Assembly (NCBI GenBank): GCA_038087875.1
Contig: CM075988.1
Location: forward strand, 17,672,001-17,736,000
DNA: 64,000 nt
Reading direction: 5' to 3'
Source: Malacoraja senta
Lineage: Eukaryota
In this document: one piece after another, positions 18,618-55,654 of the stretch
Position numbering within the stretch: the stretch's first letter is position 1
Layout of the letters: each line of letters opens with the position of its first letter
Position numbers and translations under genes: made by a program
The notes under the pieces: generated by a model
Told to the model about the DNA's origin: nothing
Database searches by the model: none
The model's input: the letters and a program-made list of their open reading frames with translations, nothing else

Positions 18618-19129
18618 GTAAGTGTTTGTCTCATTGCATCTCTGTCCACGTCTGGCCGCCAGTTCTCACAATTCTACATGTATGAAGGCATCTAGTATAT
18701 ATGTTCAGATTAAAATGGGTTTACAAAATGAGAGGGGATAGCCATACCATTTGTTTTTTGTAAGAGAGCGAACTGAACTTCAGTAATGAAGTGGCACTCA
18801 GTAATTCGACCACAGGCACAAATTCTGGCAGATATACTCGGTGTGTGGCTGAGTGCCAGCTCTGGCTCTTTTTTTCTGAGACAGAAGTTGGGCATTCATG
18901 TCTCTCTCAGGTGTGTCTCCCATCCAATGAGATTTCCACACATTGATATCTCTGCTATAACCTGATAATGACTAGATAATTTATTTATCATCAATGTTGT
19001 CAGGACACTGGAGATAGTAAGCACCAACATGGGCTGATGTTCCATTGCAGCCATGAAGGAGCATGTTTTATTGTATTATGGTACTGTTTCTCAGATGAGA
19101 CATTAAGCTAAGGCCTGCATTTATTAATT

Positions 19130-19250
19130 CTTCGTCTTGCGTAGTCTAAAGTTGTAAGACAACTTGTTCTGTTTGATCTTCTGTGCACGCCAGGTTGATT
19201 GCATTCGTGGAAACAGGGTGGACCACGTGAAAGTTGCAATCTCCCACCCC
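19130..19250 (-). mobile_element. Ribozyme-headed SINE-like retroposon, copy A
   Basis: 12-bp TSD catttattaatt (19118-19129 and 19251-19262). Degenerate GAA-repeat tail. Highly similar to 21578-21718, with small internal deletions. Confidence 0.85.
19197..19250 (-). ncRNA. Minimal HDV-like (CPEB3-like) self-cleaving ribozyme, copy A
   Basis: Minus strand reads GGGGUGG-GA-GAUUGCA-ACU-UUCACGU-GGU-CCACCCU-GU-UUCCA-CGAA-UGCAAUC. This gives P1 7 bp with G1-U wobble, P2 7 bp, P3 3 bp, L3 UUCACGU, and J4/2 CGAA with the putative catalytic C. P4 is reduced to a short linker. Confidence 0.8.
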
Positions 19251-21577
19251 CATTTATTAATTGAACCATCAAGAGCCAATGGCATCCTTTTGAGGAAGAA
19301 TAGAGGATGCTGTCTCCAGTGTCCTGGCCACTATTTATCCCAAAGACAACGTAATTGATAAATAAATTATCTAGGCATTATCATGTTATTGCAATGGGAG
19401 ATCAGTAGGTGCAAATTCAAAAGTACCTCTTGGCTAATAGACACTTCGGGCAACTTGGATTACATAAATTAAAGAGTTTTTTTAAAGATGGGTTGCTCTG
19501 ATACTATGGAATATTTACTGTCTGGGATCTCTGAATGGTTTGAGAGTGGATTTTTGTTTGCAAGGACATTTTGTTTGAACTCCTTGCAGGATCTAGCCCA
19601 TACACTTTGTGTTGCACTGAAGGAATGTTGCATTGTCATTGGTGCCTTTTTTTAATCTGTGCAGGAGCATAAGCATTTTCGTTTTAATTCAGTCTTGAAG
19701 GATACAAGATTTCACCTAAACATACCAACTCTTGTGTACGGACTCAATGTGGTCTACTATCATAAATTCTTATCATTAGTGTGATTGTGCCGGATTAGCA
19801 GGATTGTCACTGAACTGTAGGCAAAGAAAATAATTTCACTGTACATAGGTACACATGACAATCACGTACCATTGTACATTTGAACCAGTGATCACAGCTT
19901 CCTTCACCTAGCCATTGAGATTATGAGGAGTTCTTAGGCCCAACGCACTCTGTCAACTTAAGTCTTTTATCCATTGTGCTTTTGGAGCCATTACTGAATG
20001 CAGAATTTCACTGCAGTATTTCCTGGCTGTAATGTGGAGGTGGTGGAAAGCTGGAGGAGGGGGAGGAATGGTTTTCGATCACGTTTTTTAACCTGGAACT
20101 TGCTGTATTTAATTCATTTTGGGGGTCATGTGCATTATGGGCAAGGTCAACATTTGTTATCCATTCTGCATTGCTTTGGAGAAGATGCTTGTGAGCTGCA
20201 ATCATTTTCATGAATGCTAGAGGAAGGAGTTGCAACTGCAGTACAGTTTGTGGATGATATACACTGTAGTCACAGTGCACAGAGGGGGTGTAAATTACTG
20301 TTTAGTATGACTTGGAGGTAAGAGAGCAATCCATTGATACCCAGCTGACAAACCTCCAGAAATGTGGTTCAGAAACACACGTGTAAGGTCTTTGTCAATG
20401 GGAAACAATTTAGATATTCTCTGTCAAAGGGAATTCATCCAGGGTTATCCTGTTAATTATAAACAACTCAAGGATTTCTTGTCAGTGCGAATACACTCCA
20501 GCGATGCCATCTCAATGGGAACACGTTCCAGAGATGCCATCTCAATGGGAACACACTCCTTCACAGCCTATACATTACTTCCACTTCATCAGAAGTGTCA
20601 ACTAAACCCAAAGTGAAAAAGTGTGATCATCAGAATTTTTTTTTTAAATTCATATGCACAGTAGAAATAATCTATCAATACATCTAACAAATATAGACAA
20701 TGAAGATGTTAAGCCTAACTTTAATAGACTGCGCAGGAAGCTTTCTCAATACAAACCTGGTCACCTCATAGGCCCCAGCAATACTGACCTGCTTGGCAAC
20801 CTAGCCTTAGATAATACAAAATCTAATAATGTGCAATAAGCTCTTCTAATTGAGCTGCTTTGATGTAGAATTCTGTTAAGAACATGAAAGAGTTGACTCT
20901 GTTCTGCATCAGCATTTAAGTAGTTTTATGATCTTTCTTGTTGCCCTACTGACTGATGTATGCTTGGCACATTATAAGGTCTGTTATATTATGCCATGTC
21001 TTTTGTGAATGTTTGACTCATTGATTGAATTGATTTGAGTTGAAATATACAGCATGGAAACAGGCCTTTTGGCTCACCGAGTCCACGCCATCCATTGATC
21101 ACCCGTTCACATTAGTTCTATGTTATCCCTCTGCCTACCCTCTAGGACCAATTAACCTCCAAACCCGCACGTCTTTGGAATCTAGGAGGAAACTGGAGCT
21201 TCCAGAGGAAACCAACGCAGTTACTGAAAATTCTAAACACTCTTTAAAATAAGTTTGTTCTTTAAGGAAACAATGAATTGCAGATGCTAGTTTACAAATC
21301 ATGACACAAAGTGCTGGAGTAACTCAGCATCTCAGGCAGCACCTCTGGAGAACATGGCTGGGTGAAGTTTCCGATCGGGATCTTTCTTCAATGTCACCTA
21401 TCCATGTTCTCCAGAGATGCTGCCTGACCCGCTGAGTTACTACAGCTCTGTGTCTATCTTTGTTCTTGAGTTCACGGGTTCTCATGCTCTTTCTCAATCT
21501 CGTTGTTCATGCCTCCTCTCTTTCTCAAAGGGAAGGCTTTTCTTGTTCTCTTTTTTGTATGTGTTCCATGGGGTTTA

Positions 21578-27700: not shown

Positions 27701-27976
27701 TAGGGCAGTGGATGTCGTCGACACGGATTTTAGTAACGCATTTGATAAAGTCCCTCATTATAGGCTGATCCAGAAAATTAAGATGCACGGATCCACAGTG
27801 ATTTGGGCGTTTGGATTCCGAGTTCTGCAGGGATCTGTGCTGGGATCCTGGAATGCTGGGACCTCTGTTGTTTCTGATACATGTACATAAAGTAAAGTAA
27901 ATTTATTTATATAGCACTTTTCAATCAATTTCAATCACTGAAGCCAAAGTGCTTTACAGAGAAAATTATCCATATA

Positions 27977-29592
27977 CAGTGGCTTGCAAAAGTATTCATA
28001 CCCCTTGAATTTTTCCACATTTTGTCACGTTACAACCACAAACGTAAATGTATTTTATTGGGATTTTATGTGATAGACCAACACAAAGTGGCGCATAATT
28101 GTGAAGTGGAAGGAAAATGATACATGGTTTTCAAATTTGTTTACAAATAAAAAACTGAAAAGTGTCACGTGCAAAAGTATTCAGCCCCCTTTACTCTGAT
28201 ACCCCTAAATAAAATCCAGTGCAACCAATTGGCTTCAGAAGTCACCTAATTAGTAAATAGAGTCCACTTGTGTGTAATCTAATCTCAGTATAAATACAGC
28301 TGTTCTGTGAAGGCCTCAGAGGTTCGTTAGAGAACATTAGTGAACAAACAGCATCATGAAGCCCAAGGAACACACCAGACAGGTCAGGGATAAAGTTGTG
28401 GAGAAGTTTAAAGCAGGGTTAGGTTATAAACAAATATCCCAAGCTTTGAACATCTCACGGAGCACTGTTCAATCCATCATCCGAAAATGGAAAGAGTATG
28501 GCACAACTGCAAACCTACCAAGACATGGCCGTTCACCTAAACTGACAGGTCGGGCAAGGAGAGCATTGATCAGAGAAGCAGCCAAGAGGCCCATGGTAAC
28601 TCTGGAGGAGCTGCAGAGATCCACAGCTCGGGTGGGAGAATCTGGCCACAGGACAACTATTAGTCGTGCACTCCACAAATCGGGCCTTTATGGAAGAGTG
28701 GCAAGAAGAAAGCCATTGTTGAAAAAAAGCCATAAGAAGTCCCGTTTGCAGTTTGCCACAATCCATGTGGGGGACTCAGCAAACATGTGGAGGAAGGTGC
28801 ACTGGTCAGATGAGACCAAAATTGAAGTTTTTGGCCTAAATGCAAAACGCTATGTGTGGCGGAAACCTAACACTGCACATCACCCTGAACACACCATCCC
28901 CACTGTGAAACATGGTGCTGGCAACATCATGCTGTGGGGATGCTTATCTTCAGCAGGGACAGGGAAGCTGGTGAGAGTTGATGGGAAGATGGATGGAGCC
29001 AAATACAGGGCAATCTTGGAAGAAAACCTGTTAGAGTCTGCAAAAGACTTGAGACTGGGGCGGAGGTTCACCTTCCAGCAGGACAACGACCCTAAACATA
29101 CAGCCAGAGCTACAATGGAATGGTTTAGATCAAAGCATATTCATGTGTTAGAATGGCCCAGTCAAAGTCCAGACCTAAATCCAATTGAGAATCTCTGGCA
29201 AGACTTGAAAATTGCTGTTCACAGACGCTCTCCATCCAATCTGACAGCTTGAGCTATTTTGCAAAGAAGAATGGGCAAAAATTTCAGTCTCTAGATGTGC
29301 AAAGCTGGTAGAGACATACCCCCAAAAGACTTGGAGCTGTAATTGCAGCGAAAGGTGGTTCTACAAAGTATTGACTCACGGGGGCTGAATACTTTTGCAC
29401 GCGACACTTTTCAGTTTTTTATTTATAAAAAAATTTGAAGACCATGTATCATTTTCATTCCACTTCACAATTATGCACCACTTTGTGTTGGTCTATCACA
29501 TACAATCCCAATAAAATACATTTACGTTTGTGGTTGTAACGTGACAAAATGTGGAAAAGTTCAAGGGGTATGAATACTTTTGCAAGCCACTG
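27977..29592 (+). mobile_element. Full-length Tc1/mariner DNA transposon (IR/DR type)
   Basis: TA TSD on both sides. ~210-bp TIRs starting cagtggcttgcaaaagtattca, with an inner repeat gcaaaagtattca. Contains a transposase ORF. Confidence 0.97.
28356..29374 (+). pseudogene. Tc1 DD34E transposase, frameshifted near the C-terminus
   Basis: 298-aa ORF with paired-like HTH, WSDETK, QQDNDPKH and SPDLNPIE motifs; 34 residues between D and E. The remaining ELFCKEEW...GGSTKY* is out of frame after ~29245 and again at ~29320. Confidence 0.92.
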
Positions 29593-30282
29593 TAAATGAA
29601 AAAAAAAGAGGTAGGAAAAAAAGGACACGACACACTATTAGAGATTCAACACGAACATCCCCCCACAGCAGAGTCGACACTCTCCACTGTGAGGGAAAGG
29701 CACCAAAATGTCCAGTCCTCCTCCTAGTCCACCCGAGGTCGGGGCCAGTTTGAGGCCTCCGCAGCCAGTCGCCGCAACGGCAGCCCGATGTTGTAGGCCC
29801 GCCTGCCGGGAAGCTGGAACACCGGCATCGGGTGGAAAGTCCTCAGCGGCTTGGAAGTGTCTGGAGCGGCCGCTCCCTCCCCGGAGACTGCGACGCCCGT
29901 GGACTTCAGGCCGCGCCGGTTGGAGCTTCGACTCTGACTCCGTGGTGTTTTCGATCCAGCGCCGCCCGCCCGCGGCGGGACGACCGCAGACCGCGGCTGC
30001 TCGATGTTGGTGGTCGGCGGTCACAGCACTCCGGAGCGGCGACCCGGCAAGGCATCGCCCGCTCCGTGTTGGTGTCCCAGCGCTGTGCCGCCGAAGCTGT
30101 GGTCCCGGCAGGAACGCCGCTCCAGCCCGATGGAAGGCCGCATGGGGAGAGCGAAGATGCGATTTGGAGGAAAACCGCATCTCCGACCAGGTAGGACTGG
30201 GGTTGAAACAGTTTCCCACCCACCCCCCACATAGAAAGAATAGACCTCCAAATAAAAGTTATAGACAATAAAAAGGTTTAGA

Positions 30283-32963: not shown

Positions 32964-35294
32964 TGTTAAATACATGTACACTCTTAAATACAAATATCAC
33001 TCTTAAATACATGTCCTGCGGCTGGGTTGTCCAGAGAAAAGAGATAATGCCGACACGACATTCACGACAGAGATGAGAAGACGTTTCTTGACACAGAATG
33101 TGGTGAACGTTTGACTTTCTTGGCCCAACAATGGAGGCTCAGTCAGTGGAGGCTCAGTCATTGAACACATTCAAGGCAGAAATGAATAGATATTTTTATT
33201 GTTCGTTGCAAGGATGTGGGCTTCACAAGCTGAGCCAGTATTTAATTGCCCATCCTTAATTGCCGTTGAGAAAATGGTGGTGAACTTCCTTCTTGATCAG
33301 CAGCAGTCCTGGAGGTGTGTGTATTCCCACAATGCTGTTATGGAGGGAGTTCCTAGATTTTGACACAGCGATAGTGAAACTGTTAAAAAATAATTCCAAG
33401 TCAGGACTGTGTGTCCACTGTCGACAACCTCCCGATGGTAGTGTCCGCGTGCTGTTGCAGCACAGACATTGTGGGCCGAAGAGCCTGTTCCTGTGATGTA
33501 CTTCTCCTAGTTCTTCTGACCTGATGATTGAAGGAAGGTAATTCATTGATGAAGCAGTTGAAGATGGTTGGGCCTAGGACAACTGAGGAATCCTGCAGAG
33601 ATGTCCTGTGGCTGCCCTGATAGATCTCCAACCACCACAACCATCTTTGTTTGTTCTTGGTAATATTCCAACCGGCGAAGGGTTTTCCAATTTTTTTGGA
33701 AATGAAGGAAATCAGGGATATACAGTTAGTGCAAAAATGTGGTGCAGAGGAAAAGATTAATATGATTTTATTAAATGTCAGAGCAGTCAACTGGGGCCAA
33801 ATGCCTTGCTGCTTCTTATTGATGACATGTATCTGGTGGCAACTTCGGCCCTACTGAGCACTGAGACAATATATTTCATTCTGCAGTTGCTGGCTCGAAG
33901 GGCCGAATGCCCTACTCCTGCACCTATTGTCTATTGTCTACTACCTACAAAGATATGTTATTTGGTTATGGTTTGAAGAAGTTGTTCACGAGATTCATGT
34001 TAAATCTTTCCCCCCTCACTTTAAACCACACACTGCTTGGATTAAACTCCATCTGCTATTTCTCTGCTTATTTCTATCGTTGATCATTATCTAAATCTCG
34101 CTGAATATTATAAAAATCTTCCTCACTGTCCGCAACTCCAGCTATTTTGGCGTCATATGCAAAATTACTAACCAACTCATTGAGGTCATATATATATTAT
34201 CAAAGCCCAATACACAGTGTAAAAATGTGAGGATATTGGAGCCTGCTAAAATTTGTTGTATTACAGGTAGTCTTGTATTTCAATGTGCACACAGTACTAC
34301 TTCACACATTTGGCATACACAGCTGACAATTTTCACCACCTAATATTTTTGAAAATTCATAGTTTTGCTTTATTTTAAAATCATGATCTCTTTTGTATTG
34401 CCAGGAATGAAAGTTTTAAGGCCTGTTGACCCCAGTCAGAGAAACAAAGGAAATAAAATCCTCTGCCATTTCAATAAACTCTTGGTTTTGTTCACCTGCC
34501 AATCCTCAAATCTGAAGGGAAGAGCGATGCTGAGATTTTCATCTGTTTGCTGTCAATAGCAGGGGAAGAGAAGCAGGCAAGGCGCACACTGAAGGCCCAT
34601 GATATATAGATCAGCACTTAAATACACCAAGGTCTGCAAACATATTGACTTTGACCCTTTTGAAACAACTTTGGAACAAGCTGTTGTGTTACTTCACATT
34701 AGGAAAGTGATGCACTGAGACAATATATTTCACTCTGCAGTTGCGGATTTTTGTATTTGTAAAAATTAACACTTGTTTATATGTTTCAAAGGATGGAATG
34801 TTAAGCTGTAATGTGCTTCAAAACAACTTTTGTTTACAATGAGAGTCTGGAATCAGAGCAGAGGAAAAACAGTGCTTAAGTAGAGGAGAAAGGGGCGTAG
34901 ATAATAGACAGTATAGAGCAGAAGGGAAAAAAGGCATTTAAATTTTCTTTTGTTTTCCTTCATTTTCGGAAACTTCGTGCTGTAGACGCTTTCTGCTTCA
35001 ATGTGCAATTCAGTTGCAAACAGAAGGCAACGTTGTTCAATCATAAAGTCGTACAGCATAGAAACAAGCCCTGAGTAGCACCCACTTTATTGTCATCTGC
35101 AAACTTACTAATCATACCTTGCACATTCTCACATTCCAGGCACCCCTTTACCTGCAAACAACTTGCTCCAATCAACCTTTGCAAATTCCTGTCCAATACC
35201 ATCAAAGCTGGTCTTGCACCAATTCAGAATTTTAACTTATAGACCAGCCCTGTCCTTGTCTATAACTATTTAAAAGTTAATAAAGCTGTAATTT

Positions 35295-37000
35295 TCTTTT
35301 CTTCGGTATTCACCAAGGAGAAGGATATTGAATTATGTGAGGTAAGGGAAACAAGTAGAGTAGCTATGGAAACTATGAGATTCAAAGAAGAGGAAGTACT
35401 GACACTTTTGAGAAATATAAAAGTGGATAAGTCTCCAGGTCCGGACAGGATATTCCCAAGGACATTGAGGGAAGTTAGTGTAGAAATAGCAGGGGCTATG
35501 ACAGAAATATTTCAAATGTCATTAGAAACGGCAATAGTGCCGGAGGATTGGCGTACTGCGCATGTTGTTCCATTGTTTAAAAAGGGGTCTAAGAGTAAAC
35601 CTAGCAATTATAGACCTGTTAGTTTGACGTCAGTGGTAGGCAAATTAATGGAAAGGATACTTAGAGATTATATATATAAGCATCTGGATAAACAGGGGCT
35701 GATTAGGAACAGTCAACATGGATTTGTGCCTGGAAGGTCATGTTTGACTAATCTTCTTGAATTTTTTGAAGAGGTTACTCGGGAAATTGATGAGGGTAAA
35801 GCCGTGGATGTTGTATATATGGACTTCAGTAAGGCCTTTGACAAGATTCCTCACGGAAGGTTGGTTAAGAAGGTTCAATGGTTGGGTATTAATGGTGGAG
35901 TAGCAAGATGGATTCAACAGTGGCTGAATGGGAGATGCCAGAGAGTAATGGTGGATGGTTGTTTGTCAGGTTGGAGGCCAGTGACTAGTGGGGTGCCACA
36001 GGGATCTGTGTTGGGTCCACTGTTGTTTGTCATGTACATCAATGATCTGGATGATGGTGTGGTAAATTGGATTAGTAAGTATGCAGAGGATACTAAGATA
36101 GGTGGGGCTGTGGATAATGAAGTAGATTTTCAAAGTCTACAGAGATTTATGCCGGTTGGAAGAGTGGGCTGAAAGATGGCAGATGGAGTTTAATGTTGAT
36201 AAGTGTGAGGTGCTACATCTTGGCAGGACAAATCAAAATAGGACATACATGGTAAATGGTAGGGAATTGAAGAATGCAGGTGAACAGAGGGATCTTGGAA
36301 TAACTGTGCACAGTTCCCTGAAATTGGAATCTCATGTAGATAGGGTGGTAAAGAAAGCTTTTGGTGTGCTGGCTTTTATAAATCAGAGCATTGAGTTTAG
36401 AAGTAGGGATGTAATGTTAAAATTGTACACGGCATTGGTGAGGCCAATTCTGGAGTATGGTGTACAATTTTGGTCGCCTAATTATAGGAAGGATGTCAAC
36501 AAAATAGAGAGAGTACAGAGGAGATTTACTAGAATGTTGCCTGGGTTTCAGCAACTAAGTTACAGAGAAAGGTTGAACAAGTTAGGGCTTTATTCTTTGG
36601 AGCGCAGAAGGTTAATGGGGGACTTGATAGAGGTCTTTAAAATGATGAGAGGGATAGACAGAGTTGACGTGGATAAGCTTTTCCCACTGAGAGTAGGGAA
36701 GATTCAAACAAGGGGACATGACTTGAGAATTAAGGGACAGAAGTTTAGGGGTAACATGAGGGGGAACTTCTTTACTCAGAGAGTGGTGGCTGTGTGGAAT
36801 GAGCTTCCAGAGAAGGTGGTGGAGGCAGGTTCATTTTTATCATTTAAAAATAAATTGGATAGTTATATGGACGGGAAAGGAATGGAGGGTTATGGTCTGA
36901 GCGCAGGTATATGGGACTAGGGGAGAATACGTGTTCGGCACGGACTAGAAGGGTCGAGATGGCCTGTTTCCGTGCTGTAATTGTTATATGGTTATATGGT
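35295..37000 (+). mobile_element. Young 5'-truncated CR1 LINE (ORF2 RT domain, one frameshift at ~36147)
   Basis: ORFs 35366-36172 and 36156-36920 carry KSPGPD, NYRPVSLTS, QHGF, DFSKAFD, GVPQGSVLGP, Y(A)EDT and FFTQRVV..WN.LP. (ttatatgg)n tail. Confidence 0.95.
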
Positions 37001-40000
37001 AATTGCTGGTCGCAAAATGCTTACCCACAGACACTTCAGTCACATGCTCTTCCCAATTTTCTAAAAGTAGATCAAGATGTGCCCTCGCCCTTTTTGGGGC
37101 GTATACATATTGCTTGATGAAACTTTCCTGAACACATTTGACAAATTCCACCCTGTCTGAGCCCTTGGCACTATGGCAGTCCCAATCTCTATCTGGAAAG
37201 TAAAAGTCCCCTACTGACAACTCTCTTATTCTTGCAGCTGCCGACAATCTCCCAATACATTTGATTTTTTCATTCCCTTTGACTATTTGGGGGTCTGTAG
37301 GACGCTCCCAACATGGTGATCATCCCCTTTTTATTTCTCAGCTCCAGCGACATAGCCTCACTGGATAAATCGTTGGTGAACATTCCCACTTTAGACTTCT
37401 GAAAGCTCTGGATGAAGTAGTTGAAAGTGGTTCGACCTGGGCCATTGCCCAGAGGAAGTAATTAATGTCCTAGATTGAGGTGATTCAGCACAGCAACAAC
37501 AAACATCATTTCTGTGCTGGGTGTGATTCCTCTCATCGGGCTGTTTTCCTTTAGATTCCTTTCTCCTTGATCCCTGTATTTCAATTTTCCTGCAGTTCCT
37601 CAGTGCCACCCTCAGCCAGATGTTACCCTGACGTCAGTGGCAGCCACCTTCACCTCAACTCTGGAATTCAGTTCTTTGGACCCAGATCATAATGAAGTCT
37701 GGAGCCAAATGGTCCCAGCAAAAAGCCACGATTGATGATCAGGTCTTGGTGAGTGAGACCACTCACTAGAACCCTCTGTGACAATTCAGATTAAACCAAA
37801 CCAATGGTAGTTGGCTGAAATGGATAATTTTGAATAGAGATACTTAGGCAAGTTTTGTGTAGGAAGGAACTGCAGATGCTGGTTTAAACATGAAGATCGA
37901 CCCAAAAATTTGGAGTAACTCAGCAGATCAGGCAACATCTCGGGAGAAAAGGAATAGGTGACATTTCAGGTTGAGACCCTTCTTCAGACCAAGGCAAGAC
38001 AAGGGAACGTCTTGTGCAGCTGTAGTATAACATCCCAACTTTGATAGTCACTTGCCGAATTGATGAAGGCTAATGTACCAAAAGCCTACTTGACCACCAT
38101 ATCTACCTGTGGCACCACTTTTGAGGATCTTTAGGCAAGTTTTGTTGGGTGATGCCAGTGTAATAATTAGACTGACTGGAGATACTACCAGTACTGGAAT
38201 GCAAGTTCTCAGCACCCTAGCCACATGTTGTTAGGATTTATAGCTTTTCCAATATTCAATGCGCATAGATACTTGATATCATGTAGATCGATTTGCTTTA
38301 AACTGGCTTCCGTGAGCTTGGAGATCACAAAGGATCATCCATGTGTCTGTTTGCGAATGTTTCAGACATGTTTTGGGACACTTGCGTGCTGGGTCCTGCC
38401 ATTATTGAGCATGGGAATGTTTTCGGAGCCAACTCCCACTGTTACTACTTAATTATCCACCACGAGACACTATCGTGGTGTCAAGATTGCAGGCAGTGGA
38501 TTGGGTCTGTTACTTATGGGATCACTTTGCTCTGAAGAATGCTGCTTCTACTTGTGGTTCAGTGGGAGGACATTATTTCTAATTATGTTTAGGGCTGTTC
38601 CTGACATTCTCTTCTGCACTCCTCGCTGATCAGTTAGTTTGATGGTGACAGTGGAGCGAGGGATGTGCCAGCATATGAAATAGATCATGGAATCTAATCT
38701 GCTGTCATAGCGTCATTGCACTCTGAGATGCCTCGAGTAAATAAGTCAGATCTGAATCTATATCATTTAGAACAATGATAATGGTGGACAATATAAGGAT
38801 GGTATCCTCCATGTGAAGGCAGAACTTGTCCCTGTAAAAACTGTGGTAGTCATTTCTATCACTCCCATAATTGTCAGATGCAGATATATCGGTGAACATG
38901 AGTTTAGATAGACCTTTCTCTTGTGTTTATTCAATTGCCGGCAGCTGCAGATCCAGTTAATTGACCATGCCTTTTAGAACTTGTTTATCTTGGTGGGTAT
39001 ATTTGCTGGCGAGCCATTTTACGACAGGTTAGGACATCGCCTAGCTAGAACACTTCATGTTCTCCTTCTTTCACCATTGCTTCTTCCAAGTGTTGCTTAA
39101 AATGGAGGTGTAACAGTAGATGGTTATCAGGAGGACGATTTATTACCCATGTTTGCTCCGAGCAACCATGGAGGATTAATTTGTAATGGTTGCTCTAATA
39201 TGTAATGAGGTCTTGAGTTCATGTTGAGGATCTTCCAATCCACTCTATCCAATTTATAAACCAGTTTTGCTCCCATTCTAGTAGACTGTGTCTCTCCCTG
39301 TAATGGCACAGATGTTAACGAGTAGATGGTGTCATAAATGTTCAGCAACAATACTGACACTGTTACTTTCTCATTTCTAAGATTCTTCTGCTAAAGATTT
39401 TTTTTAAATTATTTTTTGATTATATGCTATTCCATTTTGAATAGGCTTAATTGCAAAGTTAATAACAATGCAACAGTAGTAATGGAGCATGTTTAACATC
39501 CCAGGCTACATCACACGATTGTTAACAAACAGACTTTGACATTGAATCAAGATGCAAATATTGAACGTGATTTGGGCGATGGTGACAATGGTTTGGTCAC
39601 TAAAGAGAGGGAGGGCAGTTAACGAGGCAATTCCAGAGCTTGGGCTCTTGGCATCTGGACACAGAGCTGGCAATGGTGAACAAAGAAAATCCAGATGTAC
39701 AAGATGCCAGAATTGGAAGATTACAGAAATGCGGTTGTAGGGCTGGAGGAGTTTCAGGATGGGGAGGCTGAGGCCAAGAAAAAGTGATTCAATGCCAGAA
39801 GAAGAATTGTCAGTCAGTTGTTAGTCGGGGATCTAAGGTAGGATGGAAGATGGGAGACCAGAACTCGGAAATAGCCACCACTTGAGGCGACAAAGACTTA
39901 AATGAGGGTTTCAGGAGCTGATAAGATTCAATGTGAATTAACCTGTTTGCGGTAAATTCCTTTCGGTTCATTACATCCCCCAGCATCGTATCCTAATGAT

Positions 40001-43000: not shown

Positions 43001-43301
43001 ATGCAAGTTCACCTCGGTTACTCTACATTTTACCTCTGCACTGAGCTTTCCTCAAACATTGCTGCCAAAATCAAGTACATTCTGGCAGGGAGGCTGTACT
43101 AATTGACTCCACTACTGCTCCTCAGTGACCATCATCACAGGGGCTCCTCAGGGCTGCGTGCTTATGCCCCTGTCCCACTTAGGAAACCTGAACGGAAACC
43201 TCTAGTGACCTTGCTCCCCACCCAAGGTTTTCATGAGTCGCCAGAGGTTTTGGTCGCTTGGCTGGAAAGCCTCGACCGAAGCGTGAGCTGCATCTACCGA
43301 C

Positions 43302-43323
43302 CAAAGATCCTATAGGATCTTTG
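43302..43323. mobile_element. 22-bp palindromic micro-insertion with 8-bp TSD
   Basis: ctaccgac[caaagatcctataggatctttg]ctaccgac. Confidence 0.75.
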
Positions 43324-43333
43324 CTACCGACCG

Positions 43334-43349
43334 CACACGCACACGCGCA

Positions 43350-43405
<56 letters not shown>
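43334..43405. repeat. (CA)n microsatellite
   Basis: Directly visible. Confidence 0.95.
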
Positions 43406-43406
<1 letters not shown>

Positions 43407-43609
43407 CGAAGGTGGGGGCCAGGGACAGCGGAGGAGCGCTGTCTTCGCGATGAAGAGGAAGATAAACGGCTGCCACAGAGCACGGTAAGTCCTTTATAGA
43501 GCGCGGGAGGGAGGGAGAGAAGGGGGAGAAGAAGTGGGGACAGTTTTAAGAAGTTTAATAAAGTTAGCGGGCATTTTACCTTCCGGCGGATCTTCTAGGT
43601 CCTGAAAAC

Positions 43610-43631
43610 CAAAGATCCTACAGGATCTTTG
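43610..43631. mobile_element. Second 22-bp palindromic micro-insertion with 8-bp TSD
   Basis: ctgaaaac[caaagatcctacaggatctttg]ctgaaaac. Confidence 0.75.
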
Positions 43632-44989
43632 CTGAAAACTCCAATGAGCCAATCAAAATGGCCGGTCAGCGAAGGCGATTGCCTTCGACTGCCTGTAAGT
43701 AAATAGCGACCCCACTCCACTGGCTTCGACCAAACGGCAACCTATTTTTAGTCGTGGCGTTTTTTGTTTTCTTTAAAATAATCGTAGGAACATAGAAGAA
43801 GCCTCAACTACGCGGAAACCACTTTCGACCATTAGGGAGAGTGACCAAAACCTCCGGGAACCTCACGAAAACCTTGGGTGAGGTGCAAGGTCTCCAGAGG
43901 TTTCCGTTCAGGTTTTCTAAGTGGGACAGGGGCATTAGTCTACTGCTCTACTCTCTTTACAACCATGACTGTGTGGCTGAGCACAGCGTCAATGCCATCT
44001 ATAAGTATGCTGATGACACAACTGTTGTTGGCTGAATCATGGATGGTGATGAATCAGCATGCAGGAGAGAGATAGAACACGTGGTTGAGTGATGCCACAA
44101 CAATAACCTCTCGCTCAACATCAACAAAACCAAGGAAATAGTCGTTGAGTTCAGAAAGGGAAGTCAGGAGACCACAAGGCAGTTTTTATTGGAGACGCAA
44201 TAGTGCAGATGCTGGTATCTTGAACAGAAACACAAACTGGAATCTTGAGCAAAAAACAAACCGCTGGTCAGGCAGGATCTTGGAAGGAAATGGACAGTCA
44301 AGACCCTTCTTCAGACATGGAGCAAAGGGGAGATAACTGGTAGTGAGAGGTGAGGGGAAGGCGTGGGTAAGAGCTGGCTAATGACAGGTGGATCCAGGTA
44401 AGGATGGTTGATTGGCAGATGAGGCCGGTAGTGGAGAGAAAGGTGGAGGTAGTGACCTCTGCTGGAGATGATAATGTGGAAGATGACAGAATGCAAATGG
44501 TGGAACCTGATAAGAAAGGAATGTGGGAAGTGAAATGTAATACCAGAGGGAGGGATTGTAGAAAAAAGAGAGTGGAGGAGGGAAACATGGGGATTGTGGA
44601 GTAGGGAGGTGTGGTTGATGAGCAGAGGTGGAGGGGGGAAGGAACTGAGTAACGGAGGCATGGGGAGCAGAAAGAAATGGATGCATGGAGGGAGGGAATT
44701 TTACATGAAATTTGAGTATTTAATGTTCAAACCGTTTGGGATGGAGGCTACCCAAACAGAAGATGAGGTGGCGTTCTTCCAGTTGCACTTTCCACTTTCC
44801 GTTTACGCTTCCCTTTTTTTGTTGTCATTTTTCGTTGTCGGCTCAGTAGTGAATAGAGTTCAGTTGAGTTGAGTTTAGTGATACAGTGCAGAGAGAGAAA
44901 GAGAGAAGATTGGAGGGTAGGAAAGTAATAAACCCGTGAAGCGTTCCTTTCTGCTTTCACCCTTCACGTGGATGGTATTTCAAGTGTCA

Positions 44990-55068: not shown

Positions 55069-55654
55069 CAGGCACGGAAATCGCTATCAAAACATGGGGG
55101 GGGGGCACAATTTCTTGGCGGCCGCGCCCGCATGCTCACACACGCGAGGCTTCGGCCATGGGCCCTGTGAACGGTAACATCGGGAGCTGACCTGGTTGGT
55201 GACCGACTCCAGCAACAGCAGCTCCGTCCGCCCCGAATCGTGGGGGTTTCAATCGGCCCATTCGCAGGTGCTTCAACATCGGGAGCCTCGACCGCGCTAT
55301 TTGACCGCGGGGCGGTGGAAGATCCCGTGGCTATCCTCAGTCCCACCCACCTATTTCCACTTCTGACCGACACCTCCCTCCTCCAATGATCGCCCTGAAT
55401 CATCATGGTCCTGCCCCCCCCCCCCCCCCCACTGCCTGCTGACCGACGTCTCTCTCGTCCAATCGTGCCCTCCCTCGATCATCAGTCCCACCCCCCACTG
55501 TCTCGCGAAAAGCTGAGATTTTTAATAGCTTTTTTTAACCGAGTTTTAAAATATGGATTATAAAACATGGGGGGGGGGGGAATCATTCCCCACCACTCAA
55601 AACATGGGGGGGGGGGCGTGTGTGCCCCCCCACCCCCCCGGATTTCCGCCCCTG
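55069..55654. mobile_element. hAT-like non-autonomous element inserted in a CR1 remnant
   Basis: TSD gctccaat/gctccagt (1 mismatch). Imperfect TIRs caggcacggaaatc / gatttccgcccctg. Repeated aaaacatggggggg subterminal motif. Confidence 0.7.

Follow-up and report, generated by a model that had tools for sequence, protein, structure and literature searches.

Within the stretch of 64,000 nucleotides analysed here (hereafter the window), one small transposon carries two palindromes of 22 bp, both flanked by exact 8-bp direct repeats that differ between the two. Each palindrome is probably what remained, after repair, of a site from which a longer cut-and-paste transposon of the P type had departed. 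Their geometry is that of the known P-element donor-site footprint, a likeness overlooked in the first-pass annotation of this DNA. Such footprint geometry is already familiar from P elements; the present case consists of two scars without a parent. A longer parent element, its superfamily and the annealing of its overhangs are what we infer, and assignment of the parent to the P superfamily, suggested by the geometry alone, is unproven.

Unit 1 is a perfect 22-bp palindrome at 43302-43323, with copies of the direct repeat CTACCGAC on the forward strand at 43294-43301 and 43324-43331; its self-complementary core CTATAG (43310-43315) may mark the junction of the retained transposon ends. Unit 2, the start of which lies 308 bp from that of unit 1 (43610-43631), is a 22-bp palindrome with a T to C change at position 12, bordered by forward-strand copies of CTGAAAAC at 43602-43609 and 43632-43639. 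Exact matching across the 64-kb window and a motif-free scan both bear out the first-pass description of two such palindromes with exact duplications of their own, and the pattern CTnnnnAC which it gave for both 8-bp targets can be read directly from the sequence. The scan, which accepted any unit of 14-60 bp that lies between exact 8-bp direct repeats and has a terminal inverted repeat (TIR) of at least 6 bp, returned units 1 and 2 as its sole hits over the 64 kb, for an analytic expectation of about 9e-5 per window, and the 22-mer was matched in 0 of 100 dinucleotide-shuffled windows with up to 3 mismatches allowed. Apart from the two units, no half-unit with a partner end and a duplication was found within the 64-kb window, and no 22-mer in the 63 kb outside the host element. 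Each unit consists solely of two 11-bp arms, with no subterminal repeats inside the TIRs, and folds into a 9-bp stem (z -6.8 and -5.9 for units 1 and 2, respectively). The 22-mer is the same at two unrelated targets, shows no resemblance to the flanks, and contains neither the duplication nor its reverse complement. Because its duplication differs from that of unit 2, unit 1 represents a second, independent event; the independent duplications seen are two in all. Unit 2 adjoins two CCAAT boxes (43640-43660) in a GC-rich part of the host element.

Elements of the PIF/Harbinger type prefer TWA targets. They duplicate 3 bp upon insertion (PMC9179366), and by its 3-bp TTA duplication (43162-43164 and 43935-43937) the host of the two units reads as a PIF/Harbinger-type MITE. 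This non-coding element of 770 bp (43165-43934) has TIRs of about 94 bp (approximately 43165-43258 and 43840-43934) that are 88% alike, and it combines the features by which such MITEs are recognised, i.e. TIRs, a 3-bp duplication, no coding capacity and high copy number. The autonomous partner of such a MITE would encode a DDE transposase and a Myb/SANT protein. It interrupts a decayed LINE reverse-transcriptase frame on the forward strand, the left part of which (43100-43161) reads ...GAPQGCVL, and the right part of which (43938-44080) continues ...LLLYSLY...YADD. A (CA)n-rich microsatellite (43334-43405) is located directly to the right of unit 1. Three levels of nesting are apparent over 43100-44080: a LINE, the TTA-targeting MITE inside it, and the two scars and the microsatellite inside the MITE. 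The window as a whole is repeat-rich eukaryotic DNA in which frames for a Tc1-type transposase and for a LINE reverse transcriptase are recognisable, and its LINE tails are ones that we take to resemble those of cartilaginous fishes. Harbinger elements are reported as absent from elephant shark, with other cartilaginous fishes untested, in the available part of PMC9179366; if the genome is that of a cartilaginous fish, a high-copy Harbinger-type MITE bears on this reported absence.

Other copies of the unit-2 site were sought in related organisms. Twenty public runs from eight organisms contain 40-51% of the region's sampled words, and four runs (X1, X2, X3 and X15, from organisms A, B, C and E, respectively) were compared over 43408-43945, an interval that begins to the right of unit 1 and includes unit 2. 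The host MITE is high-copy in these four related organisms: each run yielded between 8,060 and 15,500 aligned contigs, and in every run roughly 100 or more of these diverge into unrelated flanks beyond 43935-43938. The first-pass annotation had proposed looking for empty sites in other copies of the host MITE, and an empty unit-2 site was indeed found in 4/4 runs, so that the outcome which that annotation had named as refuting its idea did not occur. A joint skipping 31 bases, which correspond to the 30-bp insertion plus one A from the A-run of the target, is present in at least 3, at least 3, at least 1 and at least 3 contigs of the four runs, and the full 8-bp unit-2 target occurs once in at least 2 further contigs (X1, X15). 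Among 32 of the 44,845 pieces, the filled site is fully bridged in X3-25 and X2-17, with at least 31 letters on each side, and the left junction of unit 2 is bridged in X1-1, X1-2, X2-18 and X15-9. The presence of both empty and filled sites therefore makes unit 2 a real insertion; the insertion step is documented for unit 2 by empty sites and a duplication, and for unit 1 by the duplication alone.

After its insertion, unit 2 became a passenger of a MITE subfamily, was multiplied with its host and decayed at its centre. The unit as such is inherited in this subfamily. At 43621, where the copy in the window has C, the perfect form with T accounts for 60, 72, 15 and 51% of the depth in the four runs; at 43619, a second change near the centre, to G, accounts for 0.3, 13, 60 and 30%. 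Summed contig depth over the unit-2 core amounts to 2-16% of that of the flanking MITE, a measure that is not the same as copy number and that contigs carrying the 22-mer from other sites may inflate. As these copies arose through amplification of the host MITE, the copy number of unit 2 is uninformative on any mobility of its own.

Loose contig ends in X1, at 43620 and 43626/43628, were considered as the borders of a longer parent and rejected, since both match the CR1-type LINE of the window (at 35547-35564 and in the tail at 36985-37002). These matches identify them as both borders of a truncated LINE copy that lies, in reversed orientation, inside unit 2. An argument on the cut depth of a P enzyme, drawn from the end of the palindrome at base 17 in X1, was withdrawn, this end being a LINE junction. 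The fragment of this LINE in the window itself (35243-37002) has RT frames that stay open over long distances, and its 3' tail is repeated; the LINE found inside unit 2 in organism A is a member of the same family. The LINE insertion confirms the unit as genomic and is silent on the parent.

In the history that we propose, a long element would first have landed in one copy of the host MITE, generating an 8-bp target duplication. When it was excised, a single-stranded 3' overhang comprising at least the first 13 bases of the element end would have remained on either side, by analogy with the 17 nt of Drosophila P. The two overhangs, identical in sequence, could then anneal through their self-complementary core (around CTATAG), after which trimming and fill-in would yield the observed arrangement of 11+11 bp. 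When such annealing is computed, an overhang made of the first n bases of unit 1 gives exactly the 22-mer for n of 13-22 and a 12-bp product for n of 11-12, a consistency check that is partly circular in that it takes the scar's own sequence as input. A scar of this kind, devoid of internal transposase-binding sites, would stay in place, and the host MITE would go on to multiply with it and its palindrome centre would mutate, as is seen for unit 2. On this proposal, any site vacated by the element would bear the same scar, given the same end sequence, which would explain why two identical units have different duplications.

Several properties of P elements are consistent with this proposal. 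P transposase produces target duplications of 8 bp, and its cut on one strand falls 17 bp inside the terminal repeats, as described in PMC7776569; the donor site retains 17-nt overhangs of element sequence (PMC5466332). Among the P{wa} control junctions of the latter source (counted from its Tables 1-2), 18 of 34 retain both 8-bp repeats together with pieces of both TIRs, and perfect palindromes make up 7/34. In Table 2, 2 of the 29 junctions consist of a perfect palindrome of 22 bp with intact 8-bp repeats on either side. Like the units, these Drosophila footprints have intact 8-bp duplications, are often palindromic, and include a class of 22 bp, the very length found here (PMC5466332). Their head-to-tail TIR pieces, of at most about 17 nt per end, are joined at a microhomology, a geometry that the 11+11 bp and the CTATAG core of the units would fit. 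They differ from the units in end sequence, in the extent of the self-complementary core (2-4 bp, against at least 6 bp in the units) and in origin, the units being natural, old, carried by another transposon and without a parent in sight, unlike the P{wa} junctions. Drosophila P scars also vary in length according to the junctions given there, whereas both units are 22 bp long, which counts against the P reading. The stronger core of the units may possibly give one uniform scar length. It is tempting to speculate on a P-like family whose ends carry such a core and whose every donor site seals into a uniform 22-bp scar, an idea that we consider conceivable, if on balance improbable.

In a vertebrate host, the zebrafish P-like elements known as Pdre, which were mobile, share with the units the CA...TG ends and the 8-bp duplication, and have TIRs of 13 bp (PMC10983969). 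The Pdre TIR differs from the ends of the units past the first bases, and the available portion of PMC10983969 describes no TIR-only scars for these elements. Excision by zfTHAP9 in S2 cells is reported in the same source to involve larger flanking deletions, which speaks against the P-scar reading. The targets of the two units match the Drosophila P motif ATRGTCCGGACWAT at only 5-7 of 14 positions at the two sites. P elements favour promoter-like open chromatin (PMC7776569), and such a preference might be the reason for two hits within 770 bp.

The first-pass annotation regarded hAT as the likely source of the units, a view that we do not retain. Both units have an 8-bp duplication and an nTnnnnAn-type target as used to recognise hAT elements; this combination is common to P elements and so not diagnostic, and in target scores P is no worse than hobo, Hermes or Ac, so that these scores leave P and hAT unseparated. 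The footprints of hAT elements (Hermes, Kat1, Ac/Ds) resemble the units in their 8-bp duplication and palindromic scar. However, hAT enzymes, as described in PMC4763223, form hairpins on the DNA that flanks the element and remove the element together with its ends; the scar is made of flanking DNA and varies by site, whereas the units would consist of element ends and are the same at both sites.

The alternative that survives best, unlikely though we hold it to be, is the collapse by internal deletion of a longer element with an 8-bp duplication, of any superfamily including hAT. Through abortive gap repair that ends in microhomology joining, or through slippage during replication of the fold-back stem, the element would lose all that lies between two copies of the palindromic core, which is a direct repeat present in both TIRs, and the product of such a collapse would be the identical 22-mer. 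The "nearly precise excision" of Tn10 is a bacterial analogue of this process. Deletions at microhomologies of 6-8 bp that give rise to MITEs are documented (PMC3814204), and a hAT origin would be compatible with the CA...TG ends as well as with the targets. Such deletions are, however, usually one-off and varied, whereas here the same extreme product is found at two independent sites within a single 770-bp element, and collapse from a hAT element needs an extra copying step because hAT excision leaves no transposon ends (PMC4763223). Recurrent collapse was the better of the two options put forward in the first-pass annotation, but P-type excision scars are the reading that we prefer.

The other of these options, an extremely small 22-bp unit mobilised in trans by a transposase, with each copy a fresh insertion, appears very improbable. 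It would account for two different perfect duplications around the same unit and for a third copy elsewhere with a degenerate duplication (edit distance 2, about 2% by chance), and it is favoured by the failure to find a parent element. Made1, a minimal MITE born from deletion at a microhomology, is about 80 bp in length. Made1, as described in PMC3814204, resembles the units in having little beyond two TIRs joined at a microhomology, but belongs to Tc1/mariner, uses a TA target and is long enough for transposase binding and spread, whereas no independent spread of the 22-mer is seen in the sequences compared. The 22 bp provide no room for internal binding sites, of which P needs 10-bp ones inside the TIRs (PMC7776569), Kat1 and Hermes require subterminal repeats (PMC4763223), and 17-nt staggered cuts from both ends would overlap. 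Nor do the copies of the unit offer evidence for such mobility: the many copies of unit 2 are passengers whose multiplication is that of the host MITE, and the 63 kb of the window outside the MITE hold none.

As regards the parent, no longer element with these ends was found within the 64-kb window, and the first 17 bases of the unit had 0 matches in viral contigs. The 14-base half occurs in at least 120 viral loci; among the 120 listed, 80 of which have full flanks, none showed a second end with a duplication of at least 6/8, and no parent encoding a THAP-domain P transposase with the same ends was found in the window or in these 120 loci. A protein search with a junk frame across unit 1, an uninformative query, gave no candidate for an empty or filled copy. 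The motif was not found in print among the full-text papers listed, and Dfam/Repbase or supplementary repeat libraries may hold the parent. Exact matches to the 22-mer numbered two in a metagenome collection (L001, L002) and one in GTDB (L003). L002 and L003 have a flank identity of 1/8 and no duplication, and therefore represent the chance background for the 22-mer. In L001, the third copy mentioned above, the 22-mer is perfect and its degenerate duplication is expected by chance at 1.9-2.3%. About 250 bp downstream follows a short frame that resembles a zinc-finger exon and has a weak zf-MYND match (E 0.042); the 22-mer with its duplication and this frame are at 94-131 and 373-489, respectively, of a metagenome contig that looks eukaryotic. 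L001 may thus offer a weak hint at the same ends in another lineage. That a 22-bp palindrome, far below the size of any described transposable unit, is excised and reinserted in trans and has been active in distant animal lineages, as L001 would then imply, is a highly speculative extension.

Palindromes and fold-backs are trouble spots for assemblers, and a long fold-back element might have collapsed in sequencing, but such an assembly or library artefact is less probable still: independent contigs from other organisms have unit 2 at the same site, they share variants at its centre (T/C at 43621 as well as G at 43619), and a LINE lies inside unit 2 in X1. A repair scar drawn from flanking DNA and free of transposon ends, be it a hairpin footprint of the kind known for hAT (PMC4763223) or a templated insertion, is refuted by the identity of the units between unrelated flanks with neither duplication inside, and has practically no probability left.

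If the two units are P-type excision scars, they would be indirect evidence for P-style staggered cutting inside transposon ends in the vertebrate germ line, a mode of cutting that has been shown biochemically, in the sources cited here, for the fly P enzyme alone. A uniform 22-bp scar together with its duplication would, if this is true, allow excisions to be counted and dated and the target motif to be derived from sequence alone, and uniform self-sealing scars would leave, throughout a vertebrate genome, traces of past jumps that could be counted. A caution for annotators is that very small "TIR-only elements" can be footprints which a host MITE has multiplied.

Further repeats were noted elsewhere in the window. 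An element of 586 bp (55069-55654), with an 8-bp duplication matching at 7/8 positions and 14-bp inverted ends that start with CAGG and contain 2 mismatches, is likely a hAT-type MITE unrelated to the 22-mer. A 441-bp AT-rich element with inverted ends of 49 bp (86%) at 18953-19393 is a possible MITE. The Tc1-type transposon at 27966-29603, which has inverted repeats of 231 bp (94%) and a 302-aa transposase frame with HTH_SB, HTH_Tnp_Tc3_2 and DDE_3 domains, looks young.
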